Source: a virus. Taken from it: a stretch of 64,000 bases of DNA. Location of the stretch: IMG/VR virus record IMGVR_UViG_3300032271_000682, positions 1 through 64,000 of that record, one strand, 5' to 3'. Of the stretch, positions 9,401-53,978 are shown one piece after another. The first letter of the stretch is position 1, and the number at the start of each line of letters is the position of its first letter. The notes under the pieces were generated by a model. It searched no databases and was not told where the DNA came from. It saw only the letters and a program-made list of their open reading frames with translations. The translations under genes and the position numbers were made by a program.

Positions 9401-12400
9401 AATATAAAACATTGTTAGTTAATTTAACTGATCAAAACGACTTTAGTATATATACTACTCCGTCAAAAATGTTGGACACTATTGTTTATCAAATCTCTAC
9501 AATCAAGAATAGTTCTGATTCGTTCTTTTGGAGCGATATGTTTCCAAGTGGATCTCCATATGTTACAAATCAATATACATATACTTTCCCAGTTTCAACA
9601 GTAACATTACCATTAAACAAAGTTTATAATTTTACTAGTAGTAATTATAACGGCGTATTGATTTATTTGACTACAGTGGTTAATTCTCAGTCAGTTACTA
9701 TTCAACTAATAAGTGGCGTTGATTATGTAGTCAGTGATATTAGTCCACAAGTAGTTGTCAACTATAATATCGTCGATGGTGATGTAATCACTGTCAATGA
9801 ATATAATCAAACATACGGTCAATATTGCCCTAATACTCCGACTAAGCTTGGACTATATAAGAGTTATATTCCTGCTGTAATATTAGATACAACTTATACT
9901 ACTCCAACATACTTTATATTAGGTCATGATGGTAGTTATAATACACTTTACGGTGAGTATATCGATGGTCATTTAAATGATTTTCGTGATCAAGTTCTGC
10001 TTGAATTTGAAAGCAGAGTCTATAACAATCTAAAAATAAAGAGCGTGATACCTCTTCAAGCAGAAGATGTAATTCCTGGACAATTTAGAACCACCGATTA
10101 TACTTGGGCTGAATATATTGAAATATATCAGACTAATTTCTTAAAATGGGTCGGAGCTAACAGAGTTGATTATAAAACTCAAGTATATACTAAGTCAAAT
10201 CAATTTACATATAACTATAATCAAAGCACTAATAAACTAACTGGGGAATTATTACAGCAGGGTTACTGGCGTGGACTTTATGATTGGTTCTATGATACCT
10301 CAAATCCAGCTGCAGCACCATGGGGAATGTTGGGTTTTGCTAATGAACCAACTTGGTGGTCTAGTAGATACGGAGCTGCTCCGTACACTAGTGATAACAC
10401 ATTAATGTGGACAGAAATTAGCGAGGGATTTATTTGGAATGATGGAGCTTCTTATGTCAATCCTCTATATATCAGAGATGGACTGCTATCAGTGCTTCCA
10501 GTGGATGCTCAGGGAAGTCTAGTATCTCCTCTTCCGACTGTAGTTAAAAATTATAATTCATTAACGTTTCAACGTATTTGGGCAGTAGGAGATCAGGGTC
10601 CAGCAGAGACTAGCTATTTACGTAGCAGTAGTTGGCCGTTTGATTTAATGCGTTTGCTTGCACTTACTAAACCAGCCAAGTTCTTTAATTTATTTGTAGA
10701 TCGTGATTTATATGTACTAGATGAAACTTCGGGTCAGTACTTGTACGATCAACGATATCATTTAGATTCTAGAGCTATTCAAGTATATGGTAATGGAACA
10801 AGTAAAGCTAGTTATATTAACTGGGTGGTTGATTATATTAATCAGCGTGGAGTTAATGGTACAGATGCAGTTACCACTATATTAAAAAACATCGATGTTA
10901 GATTAACCTATAACGTGGCTGGATTTAGTGCGAAAGAATATCTTTCTTTCTTAATAGAAAAATCTACTCCTAATTCATTAAACTCTACGCTACTAATACC
11001 AGATAATAGTTATAAAGTATTGGTGTATAACAATGTGCCAGAACAACAGTTAGTATACTCTAGTATTGTAATACAAAAGACTCCAAATGGTTATACAGTG
11101 TGGGGTAATAGTAAAACTAATCCATACTTTACAGTAGCGGTTCCTGCTGGCGGCGGAAAAGAAACAATTACAGTTGCAAATACATCAGTTCAAGTAAGTA
11201 CTAGTTTTTCTAATACTACTGCTCTTATACCATATGGTACATTGTACTATAGCTCACAGGGTGTTAGTGAATTCATACAAACATACGGACAGTACTTAGT
11301 AGATAGTGGAATGAAGTTTGAATATACTACCAACACTGTTGTTTATAATTGGCAAAATATGATTAGTCAATTTCTAAACTGGACACAACAATATTGGGAA
11401 ATTGGTAGTACCATTAGCTTGAATCCTGCTGCTAAGTTAATGCAACTAGTAAGTCCTGGATTATCTGTCAGACCGTTGGATACTCAATTTAATTATATTC
11501 TGAATCAGAATTTATTATCATTGCAAAATCAAAACGTTTCTATCATAAGAGAAAATGAATCGTTTAGTGTTCAAGTATTATCGGACGGAGATACAATTGC
11601 ATTAAGTAATTTACATTTATCTAGTATAGAAAGTGCGGTTATATTCGATAACTACACTGTATTTAACGATACTATATATGATCTAGTTACTGGATTACGT
11701 CAAGATAGATTATTACTACAGGGATTTAAATCAGCTAATTGGACTGGCTACATGAATGCTCCTGGATTTATTATAAGTCAGAATAATATTCAAGATTGGG
11801 CGCCATATGTAAAATATCCACAGGGATCGGTTATTACGTTCAAGGGTAACTACTGGACTGCTATTGAATTGGTTCAACCCAATGCTCAATTCAGTCAAGA
11901 ACAATGGAAGTATGTCGAACAGAATCAGATTCAGTTTGGTCTATTACCTAATCCAAGTACGAATGCTTATGAAAGTTTATACTACTATGATACAAAAAAT
12001 CCTAGTTTAAGTAATGATAAAGACTTACTAGCATATAGTTTAATTGGATACAGACCTCGTAAATATCTAGAAGATGCGGACTTAAGCTTAATTACTCAAG
12101 TTAATGTTTATCAAAACATTATACAAGAAAAAGGTACTAACTTAATAGCAAACTCGTTTAAGAGTGCCAATCTATTACAGGGTCAAATCGATTATAATGT
12201 ATCTGAAAACTGGATAATCAAAACTGGATCATTCGGAACAATATCTAATAGTAATTTCGTTGAAGTATTACTAGATCAGAGTTTATTAACTAGTAACCCA
12301 ACATTAATTGGATTTACTGAGAACAGTGTTCCCGTAACTGGAGTAGAGCAAAATGTTAATGTTACCAACTTAATAAATTGGGGAACTCAGCCTACTAGTC

Positions 12401-15400
12401 AGTACTTTTTACCAGAATTCAATAACGTATACAGTGATGAGCGTGGATTACCCTCGGCTGGATATGTAAATCTCAATGATGTTACGTATATTACATTTAA
12501 TTTAACTGATCTAAATAATAATCCAGACAGTATTAATACACTGTATCGTAGTAATATTATATGGGTAGCTAGCTATATGGGTAGTTGGGACGTGTTTACT
12601 CCTGTTCCTATCGGTAGTCAGATCACTCAAATTACTAACAATTTAGATAACTCAGTAACAGTTACATTTGGTCAATATCATGGACTTTCAAAGTATGATC
12701 CGTTTGTAATATTTCAGTTAGATCCATCAGTAAATGGATACTATCAAGTTGCTTCGGTAGTATCGGCCACTAGTGTTATAGTAGGATTAGTATTAGCTTC
12801 TACCACTACAACAATATCAGGGCCTGGACTAGCATTTAAATTAATTAGTCGTCGTTTCGCTCAAGCAAGTGATCAAGTGTTTGATACGATTCCATACTCT
12901 GAGTTTTATGCTAAAAATAGTTGGGTAGACGAAAATACAGACGGTCAATGGGCAGTTTGGGGTTCTGCTCCAATATATAGTCCAACTCAATTATCATTAT
13001 CAACAGTAGAGGCTGCTCTTGCAGTAGGAACATCAGTTGCATATTCAACAGAAATTGGCTCAATGGTAGCTGATGAACTGTCTGGAATATTGTATCGCTA
13101 CTATCAAGATTCTGATGGTGTAGATCAATTACAAACTATTAGTATCAGTGGATCTTCCGTAGGCACAAATATGGTTGCCACCGGGTCATACTTATTTGCT
13201 AGTGATTCAATGAACGGTCGAGTTTATGTGTTTAAACTTAATACTGCAAATCAATTAGTACTAATTGATACAGTGACTCGTAACAACACAGGAGCAATTG
13301 CAGTAAGTACTGACGTTCAATGGTTATATATAGCTAACACTGTTACAAAAACTGTATTTGTATATTCATTAAATGATTCTACTAGTACATATAGTTATGT
13401 AAATTCAGTGATTGGCCCTTCAACTGCTATTGGATTTGGTACTAGTATTGCTACTAGTATAGATGGTACTAAATTAATTGTTGGCGCTCCAGATCAAAAT
13501 TTACCAACTACCAACTTTACAATAGCTAAAGCTGGAGCAACATATGTCTATAGTAGATCATATCAGAATTTCTTATCAACTGGATCTACTACTTACGTTA
13601 CGTTCAATACTATTCCAAATAATATTGCTGATGTTTATGTAAATGATGTATTGATAACTAGTGGAGTAACTGTCAGTGGATCTACTGTTACGTTTACTAC
13701 TGCCCCTGCTTATGGATCATTAGTCACTGTTAGTTATGGTTACATGACTCAAGTACAAATGATGTTGAGTGCTCAACCCATCAATGGTGGTAATTTTGGA
13801 ATTAGCGTCTCTACTAACAAATACGCGGCTCAAATATTAATAGGAACTCCGTTTGAATTATCAACTGCTAATAATATTCCTAATGTTCAGGGAGCAGTTT
13901 ATCGTTGGACTAATAGTGGTCAGCAATACGGTTCTATTATCGGAACAGTTGCTAGTTCAGTATCAGGAACAATGTTCATTGATGGCTATAGAGTCAATTT
14001 CAATGGATTAGCCGCTGATATCGTCGATCAAATCAATACTCAAACTCCAAGTAATATTAAAGCAATTGCAATTGATAACGTATTACAAATTGGAATTATC
14101 AATGGAACACAAGAATTTGTTAACAATGTCATTGATCTAGTTGCTACTGAAGCAGTGTTGTCTCAGTTAGGTATTACACTGTATACTAGCACTCAAGTAA
14201 TTGTTAGTCCAACACTTAACAGCACTGGACAGTTTGGTTCACTAGTAGCAATGGGAAATGATAATAGTTTGATAATCACCGACCCTATCGCAAGACCATT
14301 AAGCGAAACTACATTTGACTATAGCGCACAGGGACAATCTATATCTAATCTTAATAATTATACTATATTCGACAATGGTAGTACCACATACGTGGATACA
14401 TTTGGTCAAATTGGTGTTGTTTATGAGTTTAATTATTTGCCAGCATACAATGAAAGCATTAGTAATGTTGGAAATTATGTATTCGGTCAGTATATTCAAT
14501 CAATATATCGTGTTGGAATTTCAAAATCTCCTAAGTTTGGTACTAGCATTGCTAACAATGATGGAGTAATTGTAGTCGCGTCTCCCACATGGTATGCCAA
14601 TGGAGACGGAATAGCTTTTAAATTTGCTCCAGTCAATCAATCTACTAGTTGGTACTTAGATAAAACTCCATTGCCAATGGTAGATGTGAATAAATTAAAT
14701 TATATTAGCATCTATGATACTATTACAAATGAAACCTTAGGTTATCTAGATTATATTGATCCAGTTCAAGGAAAACAATTAGCGGCTGTCACAACTAACT
14801 TAGATTATATTCAGTCAAATGATCCTGCTAGTTACGTACAGGGTCTAATATGGACTATTAAGCAGGTTGGTAGCACATGGCTGGACACCACTAATCTACG
14901 TATGTTAAATTATAATCAACCAGACATTGTATATAACTCTAAGATTTGGGGTCAAGCATTTCCTGGTAGTTTAGCTGATATATACACTTGGGTTCAAAGC
15001 TCAGTAGCTCCAATTAATTGGACTAGTGGCGGCATTGTTGTAAATTATAATTTATTTAATACAACTATTGTTCAAGATAGATCCAGTGGAGCTCTTGTTA
15101 CTAATTATTTCTTCTGGGTTAAGAACTTCAATGAAATTTCATCAACCAAAACATTGAGTCCATTAACTATTAGTCAGTATGTATTAAATCCATTAAATAG
15201 TGGAATCTCATATTTAGCTGCTATAACAACTAATGTTGTAGCACTAATGAATAATAGCTCAAACATAAGAAGCAATAGTAGTGCGCTACACATTGGTTAT
15301 AGTACTGGAACTAATACAGATGAAAAGCATACTAGTTGGACATTGATTCAAGAAAATAATTCTGATAGCTTTTTGCCAGGATTACCAACGGCGATTAATT

Positions 15401-18400
15401 CAGAACCAACTAGCTTATACTTAAAGTATTTAGATAGTTTTGCTGGGCAAAATAGACTTGGAATATATATTCCTAGTACTAAGCAACCACTATTAACTCA
15501 ATTTGGAGTTGACTATTATCAAAGTATGTATGTCAATAGGCTTACAGCTTTAAATAACTATATACAGTATGCTAATGATATACTAATCAAATTACCTATA
15601 GCAGAAACAAGAAATTTTTACTTCTTGAATAAAGTTGGCGCATCATATGATACAACTAAATTCTGGGAATATACTGACTGGTGGGCTCCTGGATATAATT
15701 CTAGTACGATAGCAGTAGTTGAAGTTCAGTACTATGCTGATCTACAGACTATACAGTCTAATCAATTAATAGACAGTACTACTACACTTATTCTTGGACT
15801 TCAAGACGGATTGATTGCTAGAGTAACTGGTAGCAACAGTGGCAATGCACAAACATATGTATATAATATGGCAACTGGATGGGTATTGATTGGAATCCAA
15901 AACGGTACAATTCAAATCTTGTCTACATTGTATACAGATCCATATGGATGGGATAGTAATTCTTATGATACTGCTCCATTTGATGCCACGTATGCTCAAG
16001 AAACTTACTATATTATTCGTTGGTTAAATGAACAATGTTATATCAATGAACTTGAAATTGAACGTAACAATAGTTTGATATTAATGTTCAATTATATGAC
16101 CAGTGAGTCACTAGAACAGCAGAATTATTTAAACTGGCTTAATAAGACCAGCTTAATTAATGTTAGTCATAAAGTTCGTGAATTGCTGCCATATAAAAAA
16201 TATCAAGCGGATAATCAAGAATTTTTAGTAGGCTACTTAAACGAAGTTAAGCCGTATCACGTTAAGATCAATGATTTCTTATTCACTTATCCTGGTCTGG
16301 ACATATACACTGGCAACATCAGTGATTTTGATTTGCCTGCTCAGTATTATGCTCGTAATGGACAATTTGAAAGTCCTCAATTAGTATATACTAATCCGAA
16401 TAATAATTTTAATGAGTATTTGCCAACAAGTGATATTTGGAATCAACAGGAATATACAAATTGGTTTAACAACTATGGACTGAGTATTACTAATGAGAAT
16501 AGTATTACTAATATAACTCAGACAAGTGAACCAATAACATCATCAAGTTTAATTATTCCAGTTAAAAATTCATATGGATTCCCAACTAGTGGAACAATTA
16601 TAATTGGTGAAGAAAAAATATCATACTCTAGTATAAATCATTTACTGTCAGAATTGATTGTAACTTATCGTGGAGCAGATAATACTATTGCAACCTCTCA
16701 TTCAGCAAACTCTAATATCACTGCTATATTACCAGCAGTAATTGTTATAGATGGAGGAAGAGGATACATAGAGCCGCCTATAGTTACCGTATCTATAGAT
16801 ACAACTGAGTATTCAAGTCCTAGAGCTCCAGCAATACTATCTTGTGTGATGAGCAATCAAACTGTTTCTACTATTAATGTAGTAGACGCTGGTTCTGGAT
16901 ATGCCACAGCTCCGGTTATAATTATAGCAGCAAGCAGTATTAGTTCTACATTCACATCAACTGATATTGATTTAGTAGAAAATACTATTACTATTACTGG
17001 ACATCCTTTTGTCACTGGCGATTCAATTACCTATCGTTACAATGTTCTTACCACCGTTGCTCCTGTTGGATTGCAAAATAATGAATATTATTATGTAAGA
17101 TCAATTGACGTGGATACTATTGCTTTATACAATACTATCAGAGGAGCATATGACGTAACTAAGTTGCCAATATTTGATACAGATAGAATAGACTTGATTA
17201 CAGTAGGATCTGGAACAGATAATATATTGGCAGTAACAGCTAAGGCAATCGCATTCAATGGTGGTCAACCAGTTCGTGAAGTTACTACTACTATTAAGTT
17301 TGATAGAATAAGTTATGGTAGTAAAATTACTAGCTGGGGCGGAGGCATTACATATATTGCTCTTATAAGTTTAGTTACATATGCAGGAAAACTATGGCAA
17401 TGTATTAATTCCAATACTTCTTCGACATTTGTATATGAAGACTGGGTTCAAATATACAGCGATAATAGTATGTTAAATGCTGCTGACAGAGTAGCGGCTT
17501 TCTATGATCCAACCGCTAATATGTCAGGCAATGATCTTAGACAATTAATTACTGGAGTAGAATATCCTAACTCAATAGTGTTGGGAGAACCATTTGATTA
17601 TGGATTAAAAACTTGGGATTCTACTGGATGGGATGTTAACTTATGGGATCAAGATGTTACGTTTAATATTGATGCTAACGTACAAAGTCCTTCATTTAAC
17701 TACGACGTATTGACAAATCCAACCGTATATGATATTCAGGGTGGAAGATTCCAAGATGGATATGGGCCAGAAGAATTAGTTCCTGGAATTGTCACCGATG
17801 AATTAGAGTTCAATGTAACTACTGATCCTGCTACGCTGCCTGGAACGTATCTAAACTTTAGAATTCAAGTGAACAAGTATGGAGTTGGATCAGTATATAA
17901 TACTAATCCTTATACACAAACCACGCTTACTGAAGACTTTGTAAGTCGTAATAGTATCGCTGACGTACTATATGTAAGCGATGCCAGTGTATTAGTAGAT
18001 ACAACTATTACTAGCGGAACTACCGATATCAATGGCGTAATAATAGTTGAGGGTAATATGTCATTGATAGTTGCTCCGATTACAATTGATATTGATACTC
18101 AATTTGATGCAGTTCAAATTCCTGGAACCAATTTTATATCAATCACTATATACGGAATTACACCTCCTGTTGCTGTTACAGTGACAGTACATCAGGGTAA
18201 TATGTTATTAGTTAATAGTGAATATATACAGTTTACTGAGATTGATTTGACTGCTAATACAGTTACAGGACTATTACGTGGAAGAATGGGTTCAATTACC
18301 AATGACTTTATTGCCAGTGGTGCCATTGTTCAAAGTGTTCTTAGTAGAGATATGTTACCAGAAGAGTACTACTATCAATGGTGGTATAATAGTGCAGCAT

Positions 18401-18510
18401 GGGACAATGTTCCTTGGGACAATCAGCCATGGGATGCAACATTTGTTAGTGAAACATTAGAAGAAAGTACTACTGTTCCTGCCGAATTCTTAAAACAACA
18501 GTCTGCGTGA
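6469..18510 (+). CDS. Very large (4013 aa) baseplate/tail structural protein with FG-GAP-like repeats, CBM5/12-like modules and triple WD motifs
   Basis: Follows the gp6-like gene. FG.S.A....L.VGAP repeats, WAPYVKYPQGSVITFKGNYW module, EVKPYHVKI motif; Thr/Asn/Ser-rich beta-type composition. Confidence 0.75.
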   Translation: MATQVRTLDFLPDVFRTDTNAQFLSATLDQLVQQPDFARVEGFIGQKYGYAVEPTDKYVVEPTQSRSNYQLDPSVIFLKDSTQTAKDFINYPGMVSALDSQGAITNNNNRLFENQFYSWDSFTDLDMMVNYSQYYWIPNGPDAVSVATNNVYTLDNYIVVNGINGYTVNGISQKNPTLTLLRGGTYTFQVDQTSKFWIQGVPGLSGYGTNDNVSTRDILGVTNNGTIKGTVTFTVPQKNAQQQYTLPGNNLVNIVTTLQFNEINGQTIATVNNIDGVTQLDGQTLMFYDNNDLSTQIYYYVVSVAPVTGIITLTQADAIINNELIISTSGTIYVARNFYRDNTGTIQLIPYISAVLDTLYYQDETNPLNVGRINLIDSNTTNVININDIIGATNYVSPNGVTFINGLKVVFESPTIPTNYQNTQYYVAGVGTAINLLPVNQYLSFESGGEGIYIPWDYNPWDSTVWDQSIYVPLASDYLTINRDSRDRNAWSRSNRWFNEQVINATALYNGVATTSTANTPVRAQRPIIQFYGNLGLFNTGTQFLGFVNLFDNTTTNAFLQVAGQTSYTIDGIELYSGQTVIFNADLNEGVRQSIFEVGFAPTGPDNTEVITLTPTPRIRWWTDQFDSVYDTNLELIATNNNQIYVSSGTKYAGTGWRFSETFSGVDTDGFWIESQLKTSVNQAPLFDVYDINGYSLSNLAYYPGTTFTGTKLFSYTSGTGSNDSVLGFPIAYSSASSIGDILFTVNLNSDTFNYQQGTTTVTNNISIGFIYDYLTANTPVNQTGYVDAYRASAQYQVFQFTVQFILATVNQTSFTCDILVTNNGIIDPHNVYYNDVLLSDSEYSVTTNIVSNTTTITLSFPTAVGSQVTVLLYSDQVSATAYYEIPSNLQNNPFNTNITSVNVGDLKNQYYSIFSNSLGTTGTIFGPNNIYNLGNLSRYGTAIIQSSAPMVLPGVFLRRQELNVFEALQYNSEQYIEYKTLLVNLTDQNDFSIYTTPSKMLDTIVYQISTIKNSSDSFFWSDMFPSGSPYVTNQYTYTFPVSTVTLPLNKVYNFTSSNYNGVLIYLTTVVNSQSVTIQLISGVDYVVSDISPQVVVNYNIVDGDVITVNEYNQTYGQYCPNTPTKLGLYKSYIPAVILDTTYTTPTYFILGHDGSYNTLYGEYIDGHLNDFRDQVLLEFESRVYNNLKIKSVIPLQAEDVIPGQFRTTDYTWAEYIEIYQTNFLKWVGANRVDYKTQVYTKSNQFTYNYNQSTNKLTGELLQQGYWRGLYDWFYDTSNPAAAPWGMLGFANEPTWWSSRYGAAPYTSDNTLMWTEISEGFIWNDGASYVNPLYIRDGLLSVLPVDAQGSLVSPLPTVVKNYNSLTFQRIWAVGDQGPAETSYLRSSSWPFDLMRLLALTKPAKFFNLFVDRDLYVLDETSGQYLYDQRYHLDSRAIQVYGNGTSKASYINWVVDYINQRGVNGTDAVTTILKNIDVRLTYNVAGFSAKEYLSFLIEKSTPNSLNSTLLIPDNSYKVLVYNNVPEQQLVYSSIVIQKTPNGYTVWGNSKTNPYFTVAVPAGGGKETITVANTSVQVSTSFSNTTALIPYGTLYYSSQGVSEFIQTYGQYLVDSGMKFEYTTNTVVYNWQNMISQFLNWTQQYWEIGSTISLNPAAKLMQLVSPGLSVRPLDTQFNYILNQNLLSLQNQNVSIIRENESFSVQVLSDGDTIALSNLHLSSIESAVIFDNYTVFNDTIYDLVTGLRQDRLLLQGFKSANWTGYMNAPGFIISQNNIQDWAPYVKYPQGSVITFKGNYWTAIELVQPNAQFSQEQWKYVEQNQIQFGLLPNPSTNAYESLYYYDTKNPSLSNDKDLLAYSLIGYRPRKYLEDADLSLITQVNVYQNIIQEKGTNLIANSFKSANLLQGQIDYNVSENWIIKTGSFGTISNSNFVEVLLDQSLLTSNPTLIGFTENSVPVTGVEQNVNVTNLINWGTQPTSQYFLPEFNNVYSDERGLPSAGYVNLNDVTYITFNLTDLNNNPDSINTLYRSNIIWVASYMGSWDVFTPVPIGSQITQITNNLDNSVTVTFGQYHGLSKYDPFVIFQLDPSVNGYYQVASVVSATSVIVGLVLASTTTTISGPGLAFKLISRRFAQASDQVFDTIPYSEFYAKNSWVDENTDGQWAVWGSAPIYSPTQLSLSTVEAALAVGTSVAYSTEIGSMVADELSGILYRYYQDSDGVDQLQTISISGSSVGTNMVATGSYLFASDSMNGRVYVFKLNTANQLVLIDTVTRNNTGAIAVSTDVQWLYIANTVTKTVFVYSLNDSTSTYSYVNSVIGPSTAIGFGTSIATSIDGTKLIVGAPDQNLPTTNFTIAKAGATYVYSRSYQNFLSTGSTTYVTFNTIPNNIADVYVNDVLITSGVTVSGSTVTFTTAPAYGSLVTVSYGYMTQVQMMLSAQPINGGNFGISVSTNKYAAQILIGTPFELSTANNIPNVQGAVYRWTNSGQQYGSIIGTVASSVSGTMFIDGYRVNFNGLAADIVDQINTQTPSNIKAIAIDNVLQIGIINGTQEFVNNVIDLVATEAVLSQLGITLYTSTQVIVSPTLNSTGQFGSLVAMGNDNSLIITDPIARPLSETTFDYSAQGQSISNLNNYTIFDNGSTTYVDTFGQIGVVYEFNYLPAYNESISNVGNYVFGQYIQSIYRVGISKSPKFGTSIANNDGVIVVASPTWYANGDGIAFKFAPVNQSTSWYLDKTPLPMVDVNKLNYISIYDTITNETLGYLDYIDPVQGKQLAAVTTNLDYIQSNDPASYVQGLIWTIKQVGSTWLDTTNLRMLNYNQPDIVYNSKIWGQAFPGSLADIYTWVQSSVAPINWTSGGIVVNYNLFNTTIVQDRSSGALVTNYFFWVKNFNEISSTKTLSPLTISQYVLNPLNSGISYLAAITTNVVALMNNSSNIRSNSSALHIGYSTGTNTDEKHTSWTLIQENNSDSFLPGLPTAINSEPTSLYLKYLDSFAGQNRLGIYIPSTKQPLLTQFGVDYYQSMYVNRLTALNNYIQYANDILIKLPIAETRNFYFLNKVGASYDTTKFWEYTDWWAPGYNSSTIAVVEVQYYADLQTIQSNQLIDSTTTLILGLQDGLIARVTGSNSGNAQTYVYNMATGWVLIGIQNGTIQILSTLYTDPYGWDSNSYDTAPFDATYAQETYYIIRWLNEQCYINELEIERNNSLILMFNYMTSESLEQQNYLNWLNKTSLINVSHKVRELLPYKKYQADNQEFLVGYLNEVKPYHVKINDFLFTYPGLDIYTGNISDFDLPAQYYARNGQFESPQLVYTNPNNNFNEYLPTSDIWNQQEYTNWFNNYGLSITNENSITNITQTSEPITSSSLIIPVKNSYGFPTSGTIIIGEEKISYSSINHLLSELIVTYRGADNTIATSHSANSNITAILPAVIVIDGGRGYIEPPIVTVSIDTTEYSSPRAPAILSCVMSNQTVSTINVVDAGSGYATAPVIIIAASSISSTFTSTDIDLVENTITITGHPFVTGDSITYRYNVLTTVAPVGLQNNEYYYVRSIDVDTIALYNTIRGAYDVTKLPIFDTDRIDLITVGSGTDNILAVTAKAIAFNGGQPVREVTTTIKFDRISYGSKITSWGGGITYIALISLVTYAGKLWQCINSNTSSTFVYEDWVQIYSDNSMLNAADRVAAFYDPTANMSGNDLRQLITGVEYPNSIVLGEPFDYGLKTWDSTGWDVNLWDQDVTFNIDANVQSPSFNYDVLTNPTVYDIQGGRFQDGYGPEELVPGIVTDELEFNVTTDPATLPGTYLNFRIQVNKYGVGSVYNTNPYTQTTLTEDFVSRNSIADVLYVSDASVLVDTTITSGTTDINGVIIVEGNMSLIVAPITIDIDTQFDAVQIPGTNFISITIYGITPPVAVTVTVHQGNMLLVNSEYIQFTEIDLTANTVTGLLRGRMGSITNDFIASGAIVQSVLSRDMLPEEYYYQWWYNSAAWDNVPWDNQPWDATFVSETLEESTTVPAEFLKQQSA

Positions 18511-38831: not shown

Positions 38832-38837
38832 ATGTTT

Positions 38838-39230
38838 TTAAAGAATTGTTGTAAACCCTGAGTAATCAGGACAGAAGTAAAGAGAAAAGTGTCCAAGACG
38901 AGGGTTCGATTCCCTCCAGCTTCACCATAAAGGGATTACATGAATTACATTGACAATACAATAGTGCTTGAAAACGGCAGAACAGTACATTATACAAAAG
39001 ATGTATCTAAAATGTCGCTTAAAGAAGCTAATAAAATGTTAGTCACTATTAGAAAGTCTCTTTATGATGGGGCTGACCAGGTTTCGATTGGGCAAAGAGT
39101 AACGGAATGGACAACTCGACACAGATAGTCGTAAAAAGTAAACAACCAATAAATGCTAACGATGAAAATTGGGCATTAGCCGCTTGAAAAAGTTGCTTAG
39201 GGTAGGAAATACCTCGTAACAGAAAATACC
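38838..39230 (+). ncRNA. ssrA: Circularly permuted (two-piece) tmRNA: acceptor piece ~38838-38927, intervening segment 38928-39068, coding piece 39069-~39230; tag ANDENWALAA (39155-39187)
   Basis: T-arm GAGGG-TTCGATT-CCCTC plus CAGCTTC-A-CCA precedes GGGGCTG (39069). P2 pairing TGTCCAA/TTGGGCA. Tag frame gct aac gat gaa aat tgg gca tta gcc gct tga. Own promoter and terminator. Confidence 0.92.
38940..39128 (+). CDS. Putative ORF starting in the tmRNA intervening segment (62 aa; 43 codons before the mature 5' end)
   Basis: AAGGGA SD-like motif 5 nt before the ATG; no stop across the whole IVS. Confidence 0.4.
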   Translation: MNYIDNTIVLENGRTVHYTKDVSKMSLKEANKMLVTIRKSLYDGADQVSIGQRVTEWTTRHR

Positions 39231-39259
39231 AATAGGGACTTTCGAGTCCCTATTTTTTT
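39231..39259 (+). terminator. Rho-independent terminator of tmRNA
   Basis: AATAGGGACT-TTCG-AGTCCCTATT followed by a T run. Confidence 0.9.
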
Positions 39260-39292
39260 GACGATAAATACAGTATATGTTAGAGTATCACA

Positions 39293-47550: not shown

Positions 47551-48267
47551 TTATTGACCTAGCCCAAATTTCATACCAGTTGCTTGCTCAATAACGGACA
47601 TTGGAACTTGATATTTAGGTAAATCTTGTACCGGAAGAGTAGCATTTGGCATTAAGTACGCTTGTACTTTTTGACTATGCTTCTCTATAATTATTTTGTA
47701 TAGTCTAGTTGGAATTCCTAATCCATTACCGACTATTTGATGACCTTGATCAAAAATCCCTCCGGAAATGACGTAAAAGTCTGTTCCATTTGTCATCGCC
47801 CACTGACGCTCAAATGTTTCTAATTGTTTCCATATTCCTCTGTTATTATTTGCTACTTGAGGAACCATATTGCTTAAATTAAAACTCTCACTCATTATTT
47901 GATCATTCTGAGTATTGTTTCCAGCTGGCGACATATGACCACGATCATGAGTTTTCCCCACAATAGCATAATCAGATAGACTAGCAGAACATTGCGGCGT
48001 AACCATTGCATCTGGATGAAAGTTATCTCTGCGTTTGGCTGGCCCACTAATTTCTGCTATTGTTAAATGTTCAAATACGGCGATTGGCGCTTTGACATCA
48101 CAACGATGAATCACCGCATAATTCATATGACAAATTTCTTGATCACCTTGATGAATTTGATACTGTGGTGTTCCGTTGACCGTGAATTGAGGGCACTGAT
48201 TGTCAATTGTGCCAGCTAACGATGACATTGACCATAGCAATATTATTAGAGAGACAATGTGTTTCAT
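47551..48267 (-). CDS. Secreted DNA/RNA non-specific endonuclease (NucA/EndoG family)
   Basis: Signal peptide MKHIVSLIILLWSMSSLA; DRGHMSP, SFNLSNMVPQ...NRGIWKQLE. SD aagga before ATG 48267. Confidence 0.9.
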   Translation of the reverse strand: MKHIVSLIILLWSMSSLAGTIDNQCPQFTVNGTPQYQIHQGDQEICHMNYAVIHRCDVKAPIAVFEHLTIAEISGPAKRRDNFHPDAMVTPQCSASLSDYAIVGKTHDRGHMSPAGNNTQNDQIMSESFNLSNMVPQVANNNRGIWKQLETFERQWAMTNGTDFYVISGGIFDQGHQIVGNGLGIPTRLYKIIIEKHSQKVQAYLMPNATLPVQDLPKYQVPMSVIEQATGMKFGLGQ

Positions 48268-48316
48268 GATTATCCTTTGTATATTGTATTTATATACAAA
48301 CGATAAATACTTAACT

Positions 48317-48706
48317 ATGAGACTATTTGAATTCGATGAATCATCCACTAAAATACCCAAACTCAATGAGTTTGTAAAATGGGTGTGTAAGAAAATAGGC
48401 GCAAAAGATTGCCCAACTGTAAAGTATGGCACTAGTTTAGATAAAGTAAAACAACTTAGAACTTTTGGTAGCACAACTAGTAACGGTGATATATGGGTTC
48501 ACATTGAAAATAGAAACTTAGCTGACATTATGAGAACACTGTGTCATGAGATTATACATTTTAAGCAATTTGGAGCAGGCACTGCCAGCGATGATATGGA
48601 TGATAAACAACGCCAGCACATAGAAGATGAAGCCAATGCTTATGCCGGTCGATTAATGAGAGACTACGGCAAAATTCACAAAGACATATACGAAAATATC
48701 AATTAA
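48317..48706 (+). CDS. Zincin-like metallopeptidase (HExxH) with CTS-like leader
   Basis: MRLFEFDE; RTLCHEIIHFKQ...EDEANAYAG. Late box 7 nt upstream. Confidence 0.75.
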   Translation: MRLFEFDESSTKIPKLNEFVKWVCKKIGAKDCPTVKYGTSLDKVKQLRTFGSTTSNGDIWVHIENRNLADIMRTLCHEIIHFKQFGAGTASDDMDDKQRQHIEDEANAYAGRLMRDYGKIHKDIYENIN

Positions 48707-48733: not shown

Positions 48734-48741
48734 GATAAATA
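48734..48741 (+). promoter_or_regulatory. Late promoter box for the mosaic polyprotein gene
   Basis: GATAAATA in the intergenic region. Confidence 0.65.
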
Positions 48742-48765
48742 CTCTATTGATTAGGATGTATAAAC

Positions 48766-51700
48766 ATGTCAGACATTAAAAAATTTATGGATATCATGAT
48801 GGAAACTACCGCTGGAGCAACCTCTAGTGGTTCAGTCGCTGAAGTATCTCAGCCAATGATGTCTACTCAACGAAGAGTAAATCCTAGTATCTATACTAAT
48901 CAAGCTTCAAAATCTGATGATCATTGTCCTGAGTGTAAATGTAATCCATGTGAATGTCATGAAGCAAGCAGAAAAGCTCCAACAGCACCAAAAGCAAAAG
49001 AATTTGGTTTATGGCAAAATAGCGTATTAGCTGGAAAAGCACAAAAAGATAAAAAAACTAAAAAAGAAACCAATGAATCAGTTAAAATTTTAAAAACTAC
49101 TAAAACTCCTACTGGTAAGCAAGTACAAGGAAATTACGGTCTAGATTATCAGCCGGAAGAAAAACTAGATATGTACGGGCACTCAATGAGAGGAAGTCCA
49201 AAGTTACATTCTCCTAGAATCCCTGACAATAAATATCCTGGACAAGGACCTGGACGCCCTGAAAATATTAGCTCAACTGATGCATTTGACGTTTTAAAAA
49301 AAGATCCATTTGGTCGTGACAGCAATATGACAGAAGATGATCTAGAAGAAGATTGGGAAGACATTAAGAATGCTGGTAAAAAAACAATTGGGGCTGGAGC
49401 AATAGGGTTAGCAGCATTAGGCGGAGGCGGAACGCAAGCACAAACCGTTCCTGCTAATACAGGTACAAACGTAGCTCAAACACAGTCGGTTTCATCTAAT
49501 GCAGCAATAGTAAAAAGTTTGGTGAATCCCGAGGCACGACAAAGATTCTTAAAACAACACTCGGATACTACGGCTCAATTAAAAGATCCAAAATATGATC
49601 ATAATCCAGATGCTTTAGCACAACATGCAACTTATCCTAAAGAACAACATAGTCAATATATACAAAATGTCAAGAATGTGGCAGAATTTCAAAATCCCTA
49701 TCAGATTATTCGCACTGCGTTAAACATGGCAGGATTAACTCCACAGGAAGTTTTACAAAATCTACCTAAAGGATACAAACTTCCATCAACAGAGCCTAAA
49801 TCTGAGCCAGTGCGAATTCCAGGTGATCCAGGATACAAAGCACCGGTAAACGAATTTAAAAAATCTTCAAGAAATATTAATGAACTTGAATATGGTCAAG
49901 GTCAGCGCCAACTAAGATTAGCAGAAGTAGATGATAAAAGTGAACTAGATAGCTCTGGTATTCAAAGAATTATCAAAAAAATGGCGGCTAAACATCAAGA
50001 CGAAAAATGGACTAAAGAGCAGTTAGCTGCATTAGGTAAAAAATTAGCAGCGGCTGGTCGTAGAGAAGAAGAACGTAAGAATAAAAAGGGCGTTAAAGAA
50101 ACAGCAAACAAACCTAAATCTCCAAATCGTAATGATCCATGGGAACAAGGTTGGTCTGCTGCTCATCGACTTCAAAGCAACTATGAGTGTCCATATAAAA
50201 AAGGTACCGCTGAGTACGAGCGTTGGATGAATGGTTACGAAGAAGGCAGCTCACAACGTGGACATTATGATGAAAGTGTGAAGGAAGGCTCTGATCAACA
50301 GTTAACGATTCAACAGTTAGCTACTATCAGTGACGAAGCATTAGACAATGCTTATCACTATGGTCGTAGCACACCGGGAAATACATTTGGTTGGCAGGCA
50401 AATTTAAAATCTGCTGCTTATGCTAAACAAATGATTGATAAGGGTATCACTGATATTGAAGCAATTAGTGACGCTATTCATAAAGGATGGAATGTTACTG
50501 CTAAAGCATTTGTACAAAATCCTGATAAATTTGACGACACAAAAAAATTAAAAGCAGCTGGCAAACTAGAAGCAAAACTTCAACAACGAGAAAAATTGAT
50601 GAACATTGGTTATAGTCAATTACCAGACGAAGAACAAGAAAAAGATCGTGTAGTTGCTAGAGCGTTATTACAAGCCATTACAGGTCAACAAGATATGTCT
50701 GAAGCAGTAGAAGATCATACTAAAATCAAAGTTGATAGAATATCATCTAAATATCCAGGAACAAATATTTTAACTGGGAGTTCGTCCGTTCGTGTTGGAA
50801 GAAAGGGAAAATCTTCAATTGGAACATTTCCAACTTTTGAAATAGATGGACACAGATATATAACTCTTGCTGACGGAAATAAAATAGAAAGAGCGTTGAG
50901 ACAAGATGTAGCGGAAGACCTAGAAGAAAGCAAACGCACAATGAGTCGTGCTGCTAAGGGTAATGAAAAGTATGGTAAAGATGGAATGCAGGCATTAGCC
51001 AAAGCAGGTCGTGAAGGTAAAGATTTAGATAAAATCAGAGCCAAGTATAACAAATATGACGAAGACATTGAAGAAGGTTGGAGTCAAAAATACAAAAATT
51101 CAATCAACTGCTCACATCCTAAAGGATTTTCACAAAAAGCACATTGTGCAGGAAAAAAGAAACACAACGAATCAATAGAAATGGAAATGACTTGTGAAGA
51201 TTGTGGTATGTGTAAAACACACGGAGATCATAATCACAACGCTCTTGATGAAGCCTGTTGGAAAGGTTATCACAAAGAAGGTATGAAAACTATGTTTGGA
51301 AAAGAATACCCTAACTGTAAAAAAAATAAAAATGAGAGTCTAGAAACTTATATTCGTAAAGGTGAGTGTCCTGGGTGTGGAGGATCAATGATTGCTGAAG
51401 GGCAATTAAACGAAAAACAAGATGCGTGTTATCACAAAGTAAAATCAAGATACAAAGTGTGGCCTAGTGCTTATGCGTCAGGAGCATTGGTTCAATGTAG
51501 AAAAAAAGGTGCTGCCAATTGGGGTAACAGTACAAAAAAAGAATCCATTGATCTAGATGAAAATCTACATGACTGGTTCGGAAAAGAAAAATGGGTGCGT
51601 ATGGATACGAAGGGCAACATAAAAGGCCCTTGCGCTAGAGGTTCAAAAAGTGAAGGTAAGCCCAAGTGCTTACCACAAAGCAAAGCACACAGTATAGGTA

Positions 51701-52131
51701 AAAAAGGACGAGCCAGTGCCGCCACGAAAAAACGCAGAGAAGATCCAAATCCAGAACGCAGTGGAAAGGCTATCAATGTTAAGACTTCTACTAAATCAAC
51801 AGCTAAGACTGAAGGAATGTCGGCAAAAATCAAACCTATTCAAGAATTATCTTCTGCTATATTAGATAGATACAAAGAGAAGGCTAAGAAATCTTCGGAT
51901 GAATTAATCAGACAGGGTAAATATCGTAAGGCTAATGACAGAACCATGAATGTTATGAAGGCAACAGGTAAACAAATTGATAATACTGTATCAAGTATTA
52001 GAAAATCTTTGAGAAATGACAAAAGCGTAGCAGAAGGATCAAATACAAAAGTTACAAAAACATCTTCTGATATTCGTGCAATAAATAAAGCTGCTATGAA
52101 AGAAATATCATCACTGAAAAAGAATAAATAA
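48766..52131 (+). CDS. 1121-aa mosaic protein (putative head-packaged polyprotein: RMF-like, RyR-like and Cys-rich microdomains)
   Basis: Late box 48734 and SD agga. Short unrelated modules separated by (V/L/I/N)xE linkers. Confidence 0.7.
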   Translation: MSDIKKFMDIMMETTAGATSSGSVAEVSQPMMSTQRRVNPSIYTNQASKSDDHCPECKCNPCECHEASRKAPTAPKAKEFGLWQNSVLAGKAQKDKKTKKETNESVKILKTTKTPTGKQVQGNYGLDYQPEEKLDMYGHSMRGSPKLHSPRIPDNKYPGQGPGRPENISSTDAFDVLKKDPFGRDSNMTEDDLEEDWEDIKNAGKKTIGAGAIGLAALGGGGTQAQTVPANTGTNVAQTQSVSSNAAIVKSLVNPEARQRFLKQHSDTTAQLKDPKYDHNPDALAQHATYPKEQHSQYIQNVKNVAEFQNPYQIIRTALNMAGLTPQEVLQNLPKGYKLPSTEPKSEPVRIPGDPGYKAPVNEFKKSSRNINELEYGQGQRQLRLAEVDDKSELDSSGIQRIIKKMAAKHQDEKWTKEQLAALGKKLAAAGRREEERKNKKGVKETANKPKSPNRNDPWEQGWSAAHRLQSNYECPYKKGTAEYERWMNGYEEGSSQRGHYDESVKEGSDQQLTIQQLATISDEALDNAYHYGRSTPGNTFGWQANLKSAAYAKQMIDKGITDIEAISDAIHKGWNVTAKAFVQNPDKFDDTKKLKAAGKLEAKLQQREKLMNIGYSQLPDEEQEKDRVVARALLQAITGQQDMSEAVEDHTKIKVDRISSKYPGTNILTGSSSVRVGRKGKSSIGTFPTFEIDGHRYITLADGNKIERALRQDVAEDLEESKRTMSRAAKGNEKYGKDGMQALAKAGREGKDLDKIRAKYNKYDEDIEEGWSQKYKNSINCSHPKGFSQKAHCAGKKKHNESIEMEMTCEDCGMCKTHGDHNHNALDEACWKGYHKEGMKTMFGKEYPNCKKNKNESLETYIRKGECPGCGGSMIAEGQLNEKQDACYHKVKSRYKVWPSAYASGALVQCRKKGAANWGNSTKKESIDLDENLHDWFGKEKWVRMDTKGNIKGPCARGSKSEGKPKCLPQSKAHSIGKKGRASAATKKRREDPNPERSGKAINVKTSTKSTAKTEGMSAKIKPIQELSSAILDRYKEKAKKSSDELIRQGKYRKANDRTMNVMKATGKQIDNTVSSIRKSLRNDKSVAEGSNTKVTKTSSDIRAINKAAMKEISSLKKNK

Positions 52132-52135
52132 TAAT

Positions 52136-53284
52136 ATGAAAATGTCTGAAATCATCAATGATGATATTATTTCAAAAGAAAAACGAAAATCAAGTGAGTT
52201 GGTAAAATCACGAACTACTCCTATAGCAAGAGATTATTTCGGAAATAAATCTACACAACAAAAACCAATTGATCGTGAAGTTCAAAAGAAATCCAAACAA
52301 AAAGAATGGTTTGAAGAGAGTAATCAAATTACAGATGAAGAGTCATTAGACAATACACTTAACATGACTGCATTTGAAGATACAGTATCATTAGATAGTA
52401 AGTATACAGTTTGTGCTAAGGGCAGTAATCAGCCTACACTATTATATCATACTAAGCACGAAGCAGAAGAAGCATCAAAAAAAGTTCCTGGTTCTACAGT
52501 TAGACTAGTAGTACCAAAACAAAAAACTGGACAAATGGGCGAGAGTAGTATGAAAGCTGCTACTCGTAAACCAGAAGGATCAAAATTTGGTGGCTACTAT
52601 AAGGGAACTCAAAAAGGTGCTCCAAAACCAAATCAAAGTTTTGGAAGCACTGATGAAAGCATAGAGTTAGATGAGTTCGCTCCAAGCAAAGGTTATCCGG
52701 GTTATGTTAACTCATCTGATACTGACGACAGCCCTCCTACAGCACCACCCGCACCACCCACTACCTCTTCAAGACGAGGGCGTGACGATGACGATGATGG
52801 TGAATTTTTTCTAGACTTAGACAGTGTCGGAGGAGTAGGCGGGCGCGACAAAAACGGTAAACACAAAGTCTATACTAAGTATCAGTTTAGTATCTATCAA
52901 CAAGCAACTCCAGTTGGCAAGCATCACAATGATGATTTAATTCCAGTTGGTGATTATCCTTCTGGTGACTATTTTTTTGTAAAAGAAGTGGGCCATTGTG
53001 AATTGGATGAATCTAAAGGAAATAGTCTGAAAGGTTATGTATTTGTTCAAGGTCAAGGTAGAAAGTTTTTTAATTATGACATGAGCGACAATTCTAACCC
53101 AATGGTTAGACAAGCACAAGACAAAATTGAAGATAGTCAAAAAGACTTAAAGGAAGTTGCTCCTCCAGGAAAAGAAAAATTGGTTAGAAAACTGAAAAAA
53201 GAATATCCAGGACATCCAGAAAAAGCATTTGCAACTGCGTGGGCAATAAAAAATAAAACAGTAAATAACAAAGGTAAAAAATAA
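52136..53284 (+). CDS. Mosaic protein with CTS-like leader (second putative polyprotein)
   Basis: MKMSEIIND; modules separated by FEE, MGE, LDE and LKE; late box 5 nt upstream. Confidence 0.65.
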   Translation: MKMSEIINDDIISKEKRKSSELVKSRTTPIARDYFGNKSTQQKPIDREVQKKSKQKEWFEESNQITDEESLDNTLNMTAFEDTVSLDSKYTVCAKGSNQPTLLYHTKHEAEEASKKVPGSTVRLVVPKQKTGQMGESSMKAATRKPEGSKFGGYYKGTQKGAPKPNQSFGSTDESIELDEFAPSKGYPGYVNSSDTDDSPPTAPPAPPTTSSRRGRDDDDDGEFFLDLDSVGGVGGRDKNGKHKVYTKYQFSIYQQATPVGKHHNDDLIPVGDYPSGDYFFVKEVGHCELDESKGNSLKGYVFVQGQGRKFFNYDMSDNSNPMVRQAQDKIEDSQKDLKEVAPPGKEKLVRKLKKEYPGHPEKAFATAWAIKNKTVNNKGKK

Positions 53285-53724
53285 TGTTAGCAGATAATTT
53301 AAAAATACTATTAGGTAGCACATATGGTCTTTATTTTAAGACTCACGGTTTTCACTGGAACGTAGAAGGAAGTGATTTCCCACAATATCACAAATTTCTA
53401 AACAAATATTATGATGAAATTTATGGTTCTGCTGATACAATAGCTGAGTACATTCGTAGTCTTGGAGCGTTTGCGCCAGGAAGCATGACACGAATGATGG
53501 AGTTGAATGTCGTTCAAGATCAACTAAAGATTCCACGAGCAGAACTTATGTTTGCTGAGTTACTTCAAGATACAGAAAAAATGATTGAAATGGTTAAAGA
53601 CATATTCGACGAAGCAACCGAAAATAGAGAACAGGGAATTGCTAACTTTATGGCCGATTTGCAAGATTTGTACAGTAAAAGACGTTGGATGATAGCAGCT
53701 ATTCTAAAAAAGGAACGTGAGTGA
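53284..53724 (+). CDS. dps: Dps / ferritin-like DNA-protecting protein
   Basis: KTHGFHWNVEG.DF.QYH.FL..YY.EI....D.IAEYIRSLG; C-terminal K..WM. Confidence 0.92.
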   Translation: MLADNLKILLGSTYGLYFKTHGFHWNVEGSDFPQYHKFLNKYYDEIYGSADTIAEYIRSLGAFAPGSMTRMMELNVVQDQLKIPRAELMFAELLQDTEKMIEMVKDIFDEATENREQGIANFMADLQDLYSKRRWMIAAILKKERE

Positions 53725-53978
53725 AGATCAGTGATTTACTAAGTGAGAATATGGATCATAGTAAAGATGATCAAGCTGTTCCACAATTAAAAGCTGCATT
53801 ATTAGCTCAGAAGAAAAAGATCCAATCTGTTAAAGACGATAAAAATGAAGTGTATGACATCATTGATGGCATGATGACTAGCATTTCCAAAGCTCATAGT
53901 ATTAGTGGTCAAAAACTTCATGATATGTGGACCAAAAAGTACAAAGAGATTCCTGATACTTGGATCATGAATCAGTAA
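53721..53978 (+). CDS. Small protein with CTS-like leader
   Basis: GTG start overlapping the dps stop; MKISDLLSE. Confidence 0.65.
   Translation: MKISDLLSENMDHSKDDQAVPQLKAALLAQKKKIQSVKDDKNEVYDIIDGMMTSISKAHSISGQKLHDMWTKKYKEIPDTWIMNQ

Follow-up and report, generated by a model that had tools for sequence, protein, structure and literature searches.

Two adjoining genes of an uncultured marine T4-related phage encode mosaics of Glu-tagged modules that may be capsid cargo polyproteins

The DNA analysed here is a 64-kb stretch (the window), the first 64,000 nucleotides (nt) of the 89.8-kb IMG/VR virus record IMGVR_UViG_3300032271_000682 (35% G+C; CheckV completeness ~26%), a contig from an uncultured, marine, giant, T4-related phage. 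Just upstream of its DNA polymerase gene lie two adjoining open reading frames, ORF A (1121 amino acids, aa) and ORF B (382 aa), which an initial annotation had described as chains of small unrelated modules separated by Glu-ended linkers of protease type. Both ORFs exist and both are mosaic as judged from clusters of alignment ends. The five linkers named in the annotation lie where it had placed them (KGVKE at aa 441, nt 50086; ESVKEG at aa 503, nt 50272; QQDMSEA at aa 641, nt 50686; QDVAEDLEE at aa 713, nt 50902; KSVAEG at aa 1086, nt 52021), as do the additional LEE, VNE, INE, IEE, LDE, LNE and IQE sites within the ORFs. ORF B starts 5 nt past the ORF A stop and is probably co-transcribed with ORF A. 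Searches of Pfam, PHROGs and NCBIfam with the two proteins revealed no function beyond a weak DUF5872 match and unnamed phrogs. Modules a to d of ORF A are very basic (isoelectric point, pI, 9-10.3) and contain Cys pairs; their folding may depend on metal, disulfides or DNA. The features of the locus are listed in Table 1.

Table 1. Features in and around ORF A and ORF B. Positions are those of the window; a slash after Glu marks the end of a tag.
Feature	Position	Strand	Details
Endonuclease_NS gene	47551-48267	-	DNA/RNA non-specific endonuclease, E 1e-37; divergent, adjoins the cassette cluster
GATAAATAC box	48302..48310	+	Promoter-like motif, 7 nt before the HExxH gene start
Zincin-like HExxH protein	48317..48706	+	129 aa; HEIIH...E; leader MRLFEFDE; weak Peptidase_M78 match, E 1.4e-4
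GATAAATAC box	48734..48742	+	31 nt upstream of ORF A
ORF A	48766..52131	+	1121 aa; pI 9.3; mosaic polyprotein of ~15 modules
ORF A N-terminal leader (aa 1-26)	48766..48843	+	Two Glu-ended sites, MSDIKKFMDIMME/TTAGATSSGSVAE/; homologues begin MKINDIYE/STTSGSVA
Signal-peptide-like unit (aa 196-~245)	49351..49500	+	DWEDIKNAGKK[TIGAGAIGLAALGGGGT]QAQ, directly after DDLEE/
Module f (aa 388-445)	49927..50100	+	Between RLAE/ and KGVKE/; alignment starts aa 389-390, ends 428-430; 9 instances
Module e (aa 508-646)	50287..50703	+	Between ESVKE/ and QQDMSE/; independent six-helix domain
Module x (aa 647-717)	50704..50916	+	AVEDHTK...RQDVAE/; other contexts in P0002 and P0003, always right after V-A-E
Module h (aa 722-770)	50929..51075	+	Ends DEDIEE/; after module d in L001
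Module a (aa 771-805)	51076..51180	+	GWSQKYK..C..HPKGFS..AHC, ends NESIE/; 113 instances
Module b (aa 806-860)	51181..51345	+	Inner site ALDE/ACWKGY..YPNC, ends NESLE/; 134 instances
Module c (aa 861-932)	51346..51561	+	CPGCGG knuckle, then QLNE/KQDACYHKVKSRY..C, ends IDLDE/; DUF5872, phrog_727; 121 instances
Module d (aa 933-1027)	51562..51846	+	NLHDWFGKEKW...KAINV and basic tail, net charge +15; phrog_23735; 118 instances
Module t (aa 1028-1090) and tail (aa 1091-1121)	51847..52128	+	Module ends KSVAE/; tail GSNTKVTKT...
ORF B	52136..53284	+	382 aa; leader MKMSEIINDD; mosaic of at least 3 shared pieces
ORF B middle module (aa 137-180)	52544..52675	+	Between QMGE/ and IELDE/; aa 117-180 matched at many positions, in proteins of widely different length
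ORF B C-terminal (APPG) module	53156..53281	+	VAPPGKEKLVRKLKKEYPGHPEKAFATAWAI, after DLKE/
Dps-like DNA-binding protein gene	53284-53724	+	phrog_3636
85-aa gene	53721..53978	+	Leader (V/M)KISDLLSE; phrog_10346 match; C-terminal ~45 aa are a polyprotein module

A word-indexed search of 5.8 billion proteins yielded more than 1380 relatives of ORF A, and the best local alignment of each listed match spanned only 7-46% of the query. When 119 relatives were mapped onto ORF A by BLAST, their alignment starts and ends fell in tight clusters on or beside Glu-ended sites (aa ~105, 428-430, 502-513, 642-650, 717, 765-768, 804-805, 855-868, 924-932 and 1007-1020). Nine modules were defined from these alignment-end clusters, and their instances were gathered by iterated hidden Markov model search. 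The modules occur in the orders a-b-c-d, t-a-b-c-d, d-a-b-c, d-e-c, d-b-c-a and c-a-d-b, among others. Because module order and position vary in this way, the homologues of ORF A and ORF B are not colinear with them, in agreement with the modular build first proposed. Domains recognized by Pfam in the relatives include NTase, CTP-transferase, MTase, Sigma70_r4, TonB_C and ParB_N.

In close relatives, the breakpoints of module gain and loss fall exactly after the linker Glu at the protein level, as the initial annotation had suggested an alignment might reveal. One such protein (P0002), 90% identical to ORF A over aa 11-516, reads ..HYDESVAE/AVEDHTKIKV.. where ORF A reads ..HYDESVKE/ followed by module e and ..QQDMSE/AVEDHTKIKV.., so that module e is exactly absent; after ..RQDVAE/ its cargo differs from that of ORF A. 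In another (P0003), module x follows ..NTESVAE/, and ..RQDVAE/ is fused directly to DSNTKVTKT.., which in ORF A comes after ..KSVAE/. Module e also exists as a stand-alone 133-aa gene (P0182, MKQLSVQQL...ALLQAIKGAE).

Every module type is preceded by a hydrophobic-x-Glu tag. Counting unique contexts, a tag stops 1-8 residues short of the module start for 94% (module a), 99% (b), 69% (c), 85% (d) and 78% (e), compared to ~17% at random positions in the same proteins. Position P1 was Glu in 82/82 unique contexts of module a, 66/71 of module b and 54/57 of a third junction set, and Asp in 0, 2 and 0 of them, respectively, in proteins with an E:D ratio of 1.08. Position P3 was V, L, I or M in 78/82, 68/71 and 49/57 junctions, while P2 and P1' were variable; the tags therefore do not match the phiKZ-type motif, S/A/G-x-E. 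Inside module cores the motif occurs 0.20 times per 100 aa vs 2.62 outside, a 13-fold depletion that is partly inflated by homology among the instances. ORF A itself has 21 hydrophobic-x-E sites vs 14 expected, with 17 of the 21 outside module cores; the four sites "inside" cores are two leader sites and the junction within module c. Typical contexts are ..QGVAE/GWSQKYK, ..QLDE/KWS and ..DIEE/GWS upstream of module a, ..LDE/ACWKGY before module b and ..LDE/N-LHDWF before module d, whose flank in relatives reads KAINVNTKKKSNEGVAE/ or is a stop. Module e is bracketed by ..VAE/G-xxQ-LSVQQLA before and ALLQAIKG-QQGVAE/ after.

ORF B has the same construction. An exhaustive HMMER search with this protein retrieved 139 cluster representatives, in which three separate pieces (aa 1-~100, 117-180 and 333-375) were matched in proteins of 49-1256 aa. 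The C-terminal APPG module is held by ~100 cluster representatives, at varied positions and nearly always after hydrophobic-x-E (LDE/VAPPG, MDE/KAPPG, VDE/S).

AlphaFold2 predicted module e to be a six-helix domain (aa 510-639) with a predicted local distance difference test (pLDDT) score >90, and both flanking linkers scored <50. Modules a to d were modelled too poorly (mean pLDDT 60) to be of use in fold comparison, with the exception of a beta-hairpin in module b (pLDDT ~84). No convincing fold match was obtained for module e: the best Foldseek hit had an E of 0.58, the best VIA-align Z of 6.3 was to unrelated helical proteins and the PDB profile E was 0.86. That last profile hit was to a Bacteroides RyR chimera, and RyR repeat domains also appeared at Foldseek rank 15, at VIA-align Z scores of 4.5 and 4.2 and in Pfam RyR matches (E 0.29) to two homologues; none of these is significant singly, and we mention them as a lead only.

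The relatives also contain hydrophobic, signal-like segments within the chain. We counted 29 unique internal segments, 23 of which have a tag at most 25 aa upstream, and many of them are canonical n-h-c signal peptides, such as GVAE/GWKDK[LGAAALTGAMALGAAGA]QARV, the form taken in relatives by the unit at aa 196-~245 of ORF A. Pfam TAT_signal matches likewise lie mid-chain in relatives, in one case ahead of a TonB_C domain. Because n-h-c signal peptides make sense only at a free N-terminus, their location argues for cutting at the preceding tag, and a signal peptide behind a tag would be hard to explain unless the tag is cut.

The N-termini of several proteins of the contig resemble the capsid-targeting sequence (CTS) of T4 internal proteins (IPs). 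T4 IPII and IPIII start with MKTYQEFIAE and IPI with MKTFKEF...ITE (read from NC_000866). Seven leaders of this kind are encoded on the contig (MKSYEFLIE, MRADEFITE, MRAKEFIVE, MKITEIILE, MKITDIISE, MKMSEIIND and MRLFEFDE), where a rough estimate from residue frequencies gives an expectation of ~0.1. Likeness to MKTYQEFIAE is seen in ORF B (MKMSEIINDD), the zincin (MRLFEFDE) and the 85-aa protein ((V)KISDLLSE). The ORF A leader, MSDIKKFMDIMME, is looser than the T4 type; its homologues read MKINDIYE. Among the collected relatives, 57/368 have T4-CTS-like N-termini, and module a, when it is the first module, follows MKISEILTE/SWSQKYK, MKARDIITE/KWS or MRNKEFASE/DWS, with MKKFNKFLEE/.. as a further leader. 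Ten N-terminal residues of IPIII are enough to direct it to the capsid (PMC9026906), and the 10-residue CTS is sufficient for packaging (PMC9026906, PMC5694885); residues 8 and 10 govern processing, and Asp at position 10 blocks processing and not targeting (PMC9026906). In ORF B (52136-52165) and its relatives P0247-P0264, the leaders end in ..IINDD, ..IITDD or ..IISDD, with Asp in place of the cut-site Glu. Since Asp at this position blocks T4 processing without blocking targeting, this hints, by analogy, that the ORF B family may be targeted without removal of the leader.

Cultured phages provide a link to virions. By tblastn, modules b to d were present in 365 cultured-phage records, all with cyanophage, marine-virus or Roseobacter-phage names. 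The carriers that we inspected were T4-like Kyanoviridae, in which the gene is found under the label T4-GC119, flanked by the terminase genes 16 and 17. The T4-GC119 product was detected in purified virions of S-SM1 with 13 peptides (Sullivan et al. 2010, PMC3037559, Table S8), and across 16 cyanophages the gene measures 276-2985 nt (PMC3037559). The S-SM1 protein, SSM1_115, has modules c (E 3e-22), d (2e-12) and b (1e-7) in common with ORF A, in a different order. Proteases of the gp21 type from T4, phiKZ and SPN3US cut after Glu (PMC5694885). Genes for such a protease (Peptidase_S77, gp21) occur in Atu_ph07, Vibrio phage 2.275.O and a marine T4-like contig (G005) that also encodes a polyprotein of this kind. 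The gp21-type protease of that contig (L030 5013-5657, - strand) itself begins MKLITEVTE/SVNFITE/, a start that is similar to those of the cargo and agrees with the LIE-9 site described for T4 gp21.

We lean towards reading ORF A and ORF B as capsid-targeted cargo polyproteins that would be cut by a gp21-type prohead protease in a T4-related jumbo myovirus, a reading based on sequence logic and one proxy proteome, that of S-SM1. The chain would be made of independently evolving modules of 30-140 aa, each bearing at its N-terminal edge a short, presumably exposed tag of the form (Q/K/E)(G/D/N/S)-(V/L/I/M)-x-Glu. An N-terminal leader of the T4 capsid-targeting type would bring the precursor into the prohead core, where a gp21-type prohead serine protease would cut after the Glu of each tag. 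The small, mostly basic proteins set free would stay in the head with the DNA and exit with it at the next infection, and one gene would probably deliver many small proteins into the capsid by this route. Some of the freed pieces would begin with a Sec/Tat-like signal, making re-export in the new host possible. With every module bringing its own tag, in-frame gain, loss and reshuffling at the tag would be tolerated, which could explain the mosaic. The initial proposal that the Glu-ended linkers are protease-type sites agrees with the strict Glu at P1, the V, L, I or M at P3, the motif depletion and the linkers that AlphaFold2 models as disordered; its term "effectors" is less apt. Modules a to d are very conserved, basic and Cys-paired, so that "effectors" is too strong a word for them, and they look more like DNA-associated internal proteins.

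Several observations weigh against this cargo interpretation. Late promoters had been assigned to both genes, whereas the T4 late box TATAAATA is not enriched in the window (4 found vs 12 expected) and a window scan for it did not reveal a clear late promoter for ORF A or ORF B; the GATAAATAC box, found 5 times in the window vs 1.2 expected, is not the canonical T4 late box, and the box before ORF B is merely the last codons of ORF A. Neither Peptidase_S77 (gp21) nor head genes were found on the 89.8-kb contig, itself ~26% complete, and the polyprotein genes adjoin replication genes, not a head module. The P3 residue of the tag is mostly Val, whereas T4 gp21 reportedly prefers Leu/Ile-x-Glu. 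Some junctions have no tag, such as the one that follows module d in ORF A and those preceding module h, and the inflation of the motif depletion by homology has to be counted here as well. Modules a to d, at 70-85% identity across very different phages, appear unlike arms-race effectors. We infer cleavage from sequence, both for this phage and for the polyprotein family as a whole, as we do targeting, the identity of the protease and delivery. The tag, always attached to its module, could also be interpreted as an N-cap conserved in every module, in which case there may be no cutting and the products would be long multidomain virion or DNA-binding proteins, with hydrophobic-x-Glu as N-cap or spacer and leader-like N-termini of some other role. 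In line with such uncut proteins, the tag always accompanies its module at a constant distance, the published account of the S-SM1 homologue lists it simply as a virion protein with fragments unmentioned, and modules a to d, being poorly modelled by AlphaFold2, may form a flexible basic chain. However, one P3/P1 pattern, with P2 and P1' left free, is common to modules of unrelated structure (e is helical, b a hairpin, and a, c and d are Cys-paired; the APPG module has it as well), Asp is kept out of P1, module interiors avoid the motif, and modules exist as single genes too; canonical signal peptides right behind tags are likewise at odds with a chain that stays whole. We consider the absence of cutting unlikely.

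Cutting could instead be done by the family's own HExxH zincin, in the cytoplasm or after delivery, in place of a head protease. The zincin gene upstream of ORF A encodes HEIIH and has a weak Peptidase_M78 match; its 129-aa product is a stand-alone copy of a module that occurs inside the polyproteins of other phages. This HExxH...GSPxE module is embedded in at least 20 of 120 ORF A relatives, and its origin in the same cassette pool is a further point against a head protease; in the phage studied here it is not embedded in ORF A or ORF B but encoded next door. For polyvalent proteins, embedded metallopeptidases have been proposed to set the individual domains free (Iyer et al. 2017, PMC5512222), and autoproteolysis of this kind would match. 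Its distribution rules out the zincin as a general processing enzyme, as most carriers are without it: it is present in 4 cultured-phage records vs 365 with modules a to d, and in 0/19 related viral loci. Zincins usually select on P1', whereas Glu-specific serine proteases of the gp21 type would agree with the strict P1 Glu and variable P1' of the tags. The zincin's own CTS-like leader is what a cargo protein would have, and we read it as cargo or an accessory; processing by this enzyme seems to us quite improbable. The initial annotation had also offered the linker DNA as a recombination joint, and it could be supposed that the linker is kept mainly as a DNA recombination site in the manner of an integron, with the encoded peptide incidental. 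The breakpoints of close relatives do lie exactly at the linker, and exact copies of the 13-mer GGTRTGGCGGAAG, which encodes G-V/M-A-E, are found in the polyprotein genes of two related loci (L005 6526-6538 and 6667-6679; L011 4761-4773); DNA-level conservation of the linker may be lineage-specific. Against this, the linker codons vary freely within ORF A (AGT GTG AAG GAA, AGC GTA GCA GAA, GAT GTA GCG GAA and TCA GTC GCT GAA, with Val as GTG, GTA, GTC or GTT, Ala as GCA, GCG or GCT and a common tract of at most ~5 nt) and across related loci, where the tag Leu and Glu codons vary too. None of the direct-repeat families in the window maps to the linkers, the 13-mer occurs there once at 2 mismatches, which is chance level, and the repeated DNA site at cassette borders that characterizes an integron-like cassette array was not found in this window. 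Because the codons vary and linker repeats were not found, selection in this lineage appears to act on the peptide and not the DNA; selection for recombinants that stay in frame and keep the tag would account equally well for the breakpoints at linkers, and a primary role as a DNA site is highly improbable.

Among known systems, the polyproteins appear closest in kind to the T4 internal proteins and to polyvalent proteins. The T4 proteins IPI, IPII, IPIII and Alt have a similar leader, M-K-x-x-x-E-F-x-x-E, with Glu at the cut position after a hydrophobic P3, and T4 internal proteins are also small basic products in a T4-related lineage, with variable cargo behind a conserved leader. T4 cargo, however, consists of single proteins with one leader, whereas here up to ~15 modules are chained, each behind an internal tag of its own. 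The sequences are not homologous to the T4 IPs, Val predominates at P3, export signals are present on some modules, and the system is known here from its sequence. Polyvalent proteins (PMC5512222) are alike in combining many unrelated domains (2 to 15, compared to ~15 modules here) in one phage polypeptide that is presumed to be delivered alongside the DNA. As in polyvalent proteins, for which proteolytic release has been proposed, the relatives contain modules of the nucleotidyltransferase, methyltransferase, ParB_N and zincin-like peptidase types. The polyvalent hallmark domains (MuF, ART, DarB-type helicase/methylase and ArdC) were not found in ORF A or ORF B with Pfam, PHROGs or NCBIfam; the modules here are much smaller and are predicted to be cut in trans by a head protease at a standard tag, and the polyvalent-protein paper (PMC5512222) mentions neither marine or cyanophage members nor linkers. 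In phiKZ and SPN3US, the gp21-related proteases gp175 and gp245 process many head proteins by cutting after Glu, at several sites in some precursors (PMC10052503, PMC5694885), but the motif is A/S/G-x-E with Val at P4, mostly N-terminal propeptides are removed, and there are no shuffled cassette arrays. Cyanophage T4-GC119 (PMC3037559) is a true homologue by virtue of modules b, c and d, and is found in S-SM1 virions; its description there goes no further than a hypothetical or structural protein in a mobile cassette, and its modular build, tags and possible processing were not noted. In the literature that we searched, coverage of which leaves out most subscription journals, the format of chained, tag-delimited cassettes with unmasked export signals appears to be undescribed.

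The genes around ORF A and ORF B follow the order NS-type endonuclease (- strand), 129-aa HExxH protein, ORF A, ORF B, Dps-like protein, 85-aa protein, 92-aa regulator-like protein and polymerase. Related viral contigs keep the order of polyprotein, Dps-like, 92-aa gene and polymerase, while the polyproteins themselves differ. The Dps-like protein is 47-68% identical in five related contigs (L003, L005, L006, L008 and L011), where it stands beside variable polyprotein genes, and a functional link between it and the capsid cargo is possible. The C-terminal ~45-aa module of the 85-aa protein is also found inside 10 of the collected polyproteins, and the Endonuclease_NS protein has a hydrophobic, signal-like N-terminus. 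The family-B DNA polymerase of the contig is 42-46% identical to those of the jumbo myovirus group of Atu_ph07, GAP32, CBB and Vibrio 2.275.O; by this protein, the nearest complete relatives are Atu_ph07 and Vibrio phage 2.275.O. At the nucleotide level, megablast retrieved no match to the region from 50,697 phage records, and relatives show up as protein-level module matches only. A 171-kb contig is known that encodes a protein identical to one from this phage.

Elsewhere in the window, ARAGORN identified a permuted two-piece transfer-messenger RNA gene (38835-39278, + strand) with a tag peptide ending in ANDENWALAA; the permuted type is typical of alphaproteobacteria and may point to the host. 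A single ORF of 4013 aa (6469-18510, + strand), followed by several 300-aa ORFs, presumably encodes a giant fibre or structural protein. Beyond the window, the contig seems to encode ClpX-, ClpP-, DnaK-, IscU/IscA- and peptide-deformylase-like proteins (66953-68173, 75412-76002, 85438-87348 and 70273-71337), as judged from N-terminal sequence only; such a chaperone and protease set would be unusually rich for a phage, if these assignments hold.

We tentatively extend the cargo reading to a wider one, which we regard as possible though rather doubtful: that widespread marine and freshwater T4-related phages carry "beads on a string" capsid cargo, cut before each bead by the head protease, which would yield a dozen delivered mini-proteins from a single gene, unmask Sec/Tat signals on some of them and so open a route from capsid to cytoplasm to periplasm, with the tag doubling as cassette border. 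If the cargo reading is true, a large share of the "hypothetical" coding in abundant ocean myoviruses, cyanophages and jumbo phages alike, would be virion-delivered cargo written in a grammar of leader, tag and module, and both the cargo and its mature protein ends could be predicted from the tag in the sequence. The same reading would account for the extreme differences in length among cyanophage T4-GC119 genes, and the system might offer a natural scaffold for packing several foreign proteins into T4-type capsids. The T4 internal-protein paradigm would then widen, in tailed phages, from single proteins to polyproteins.

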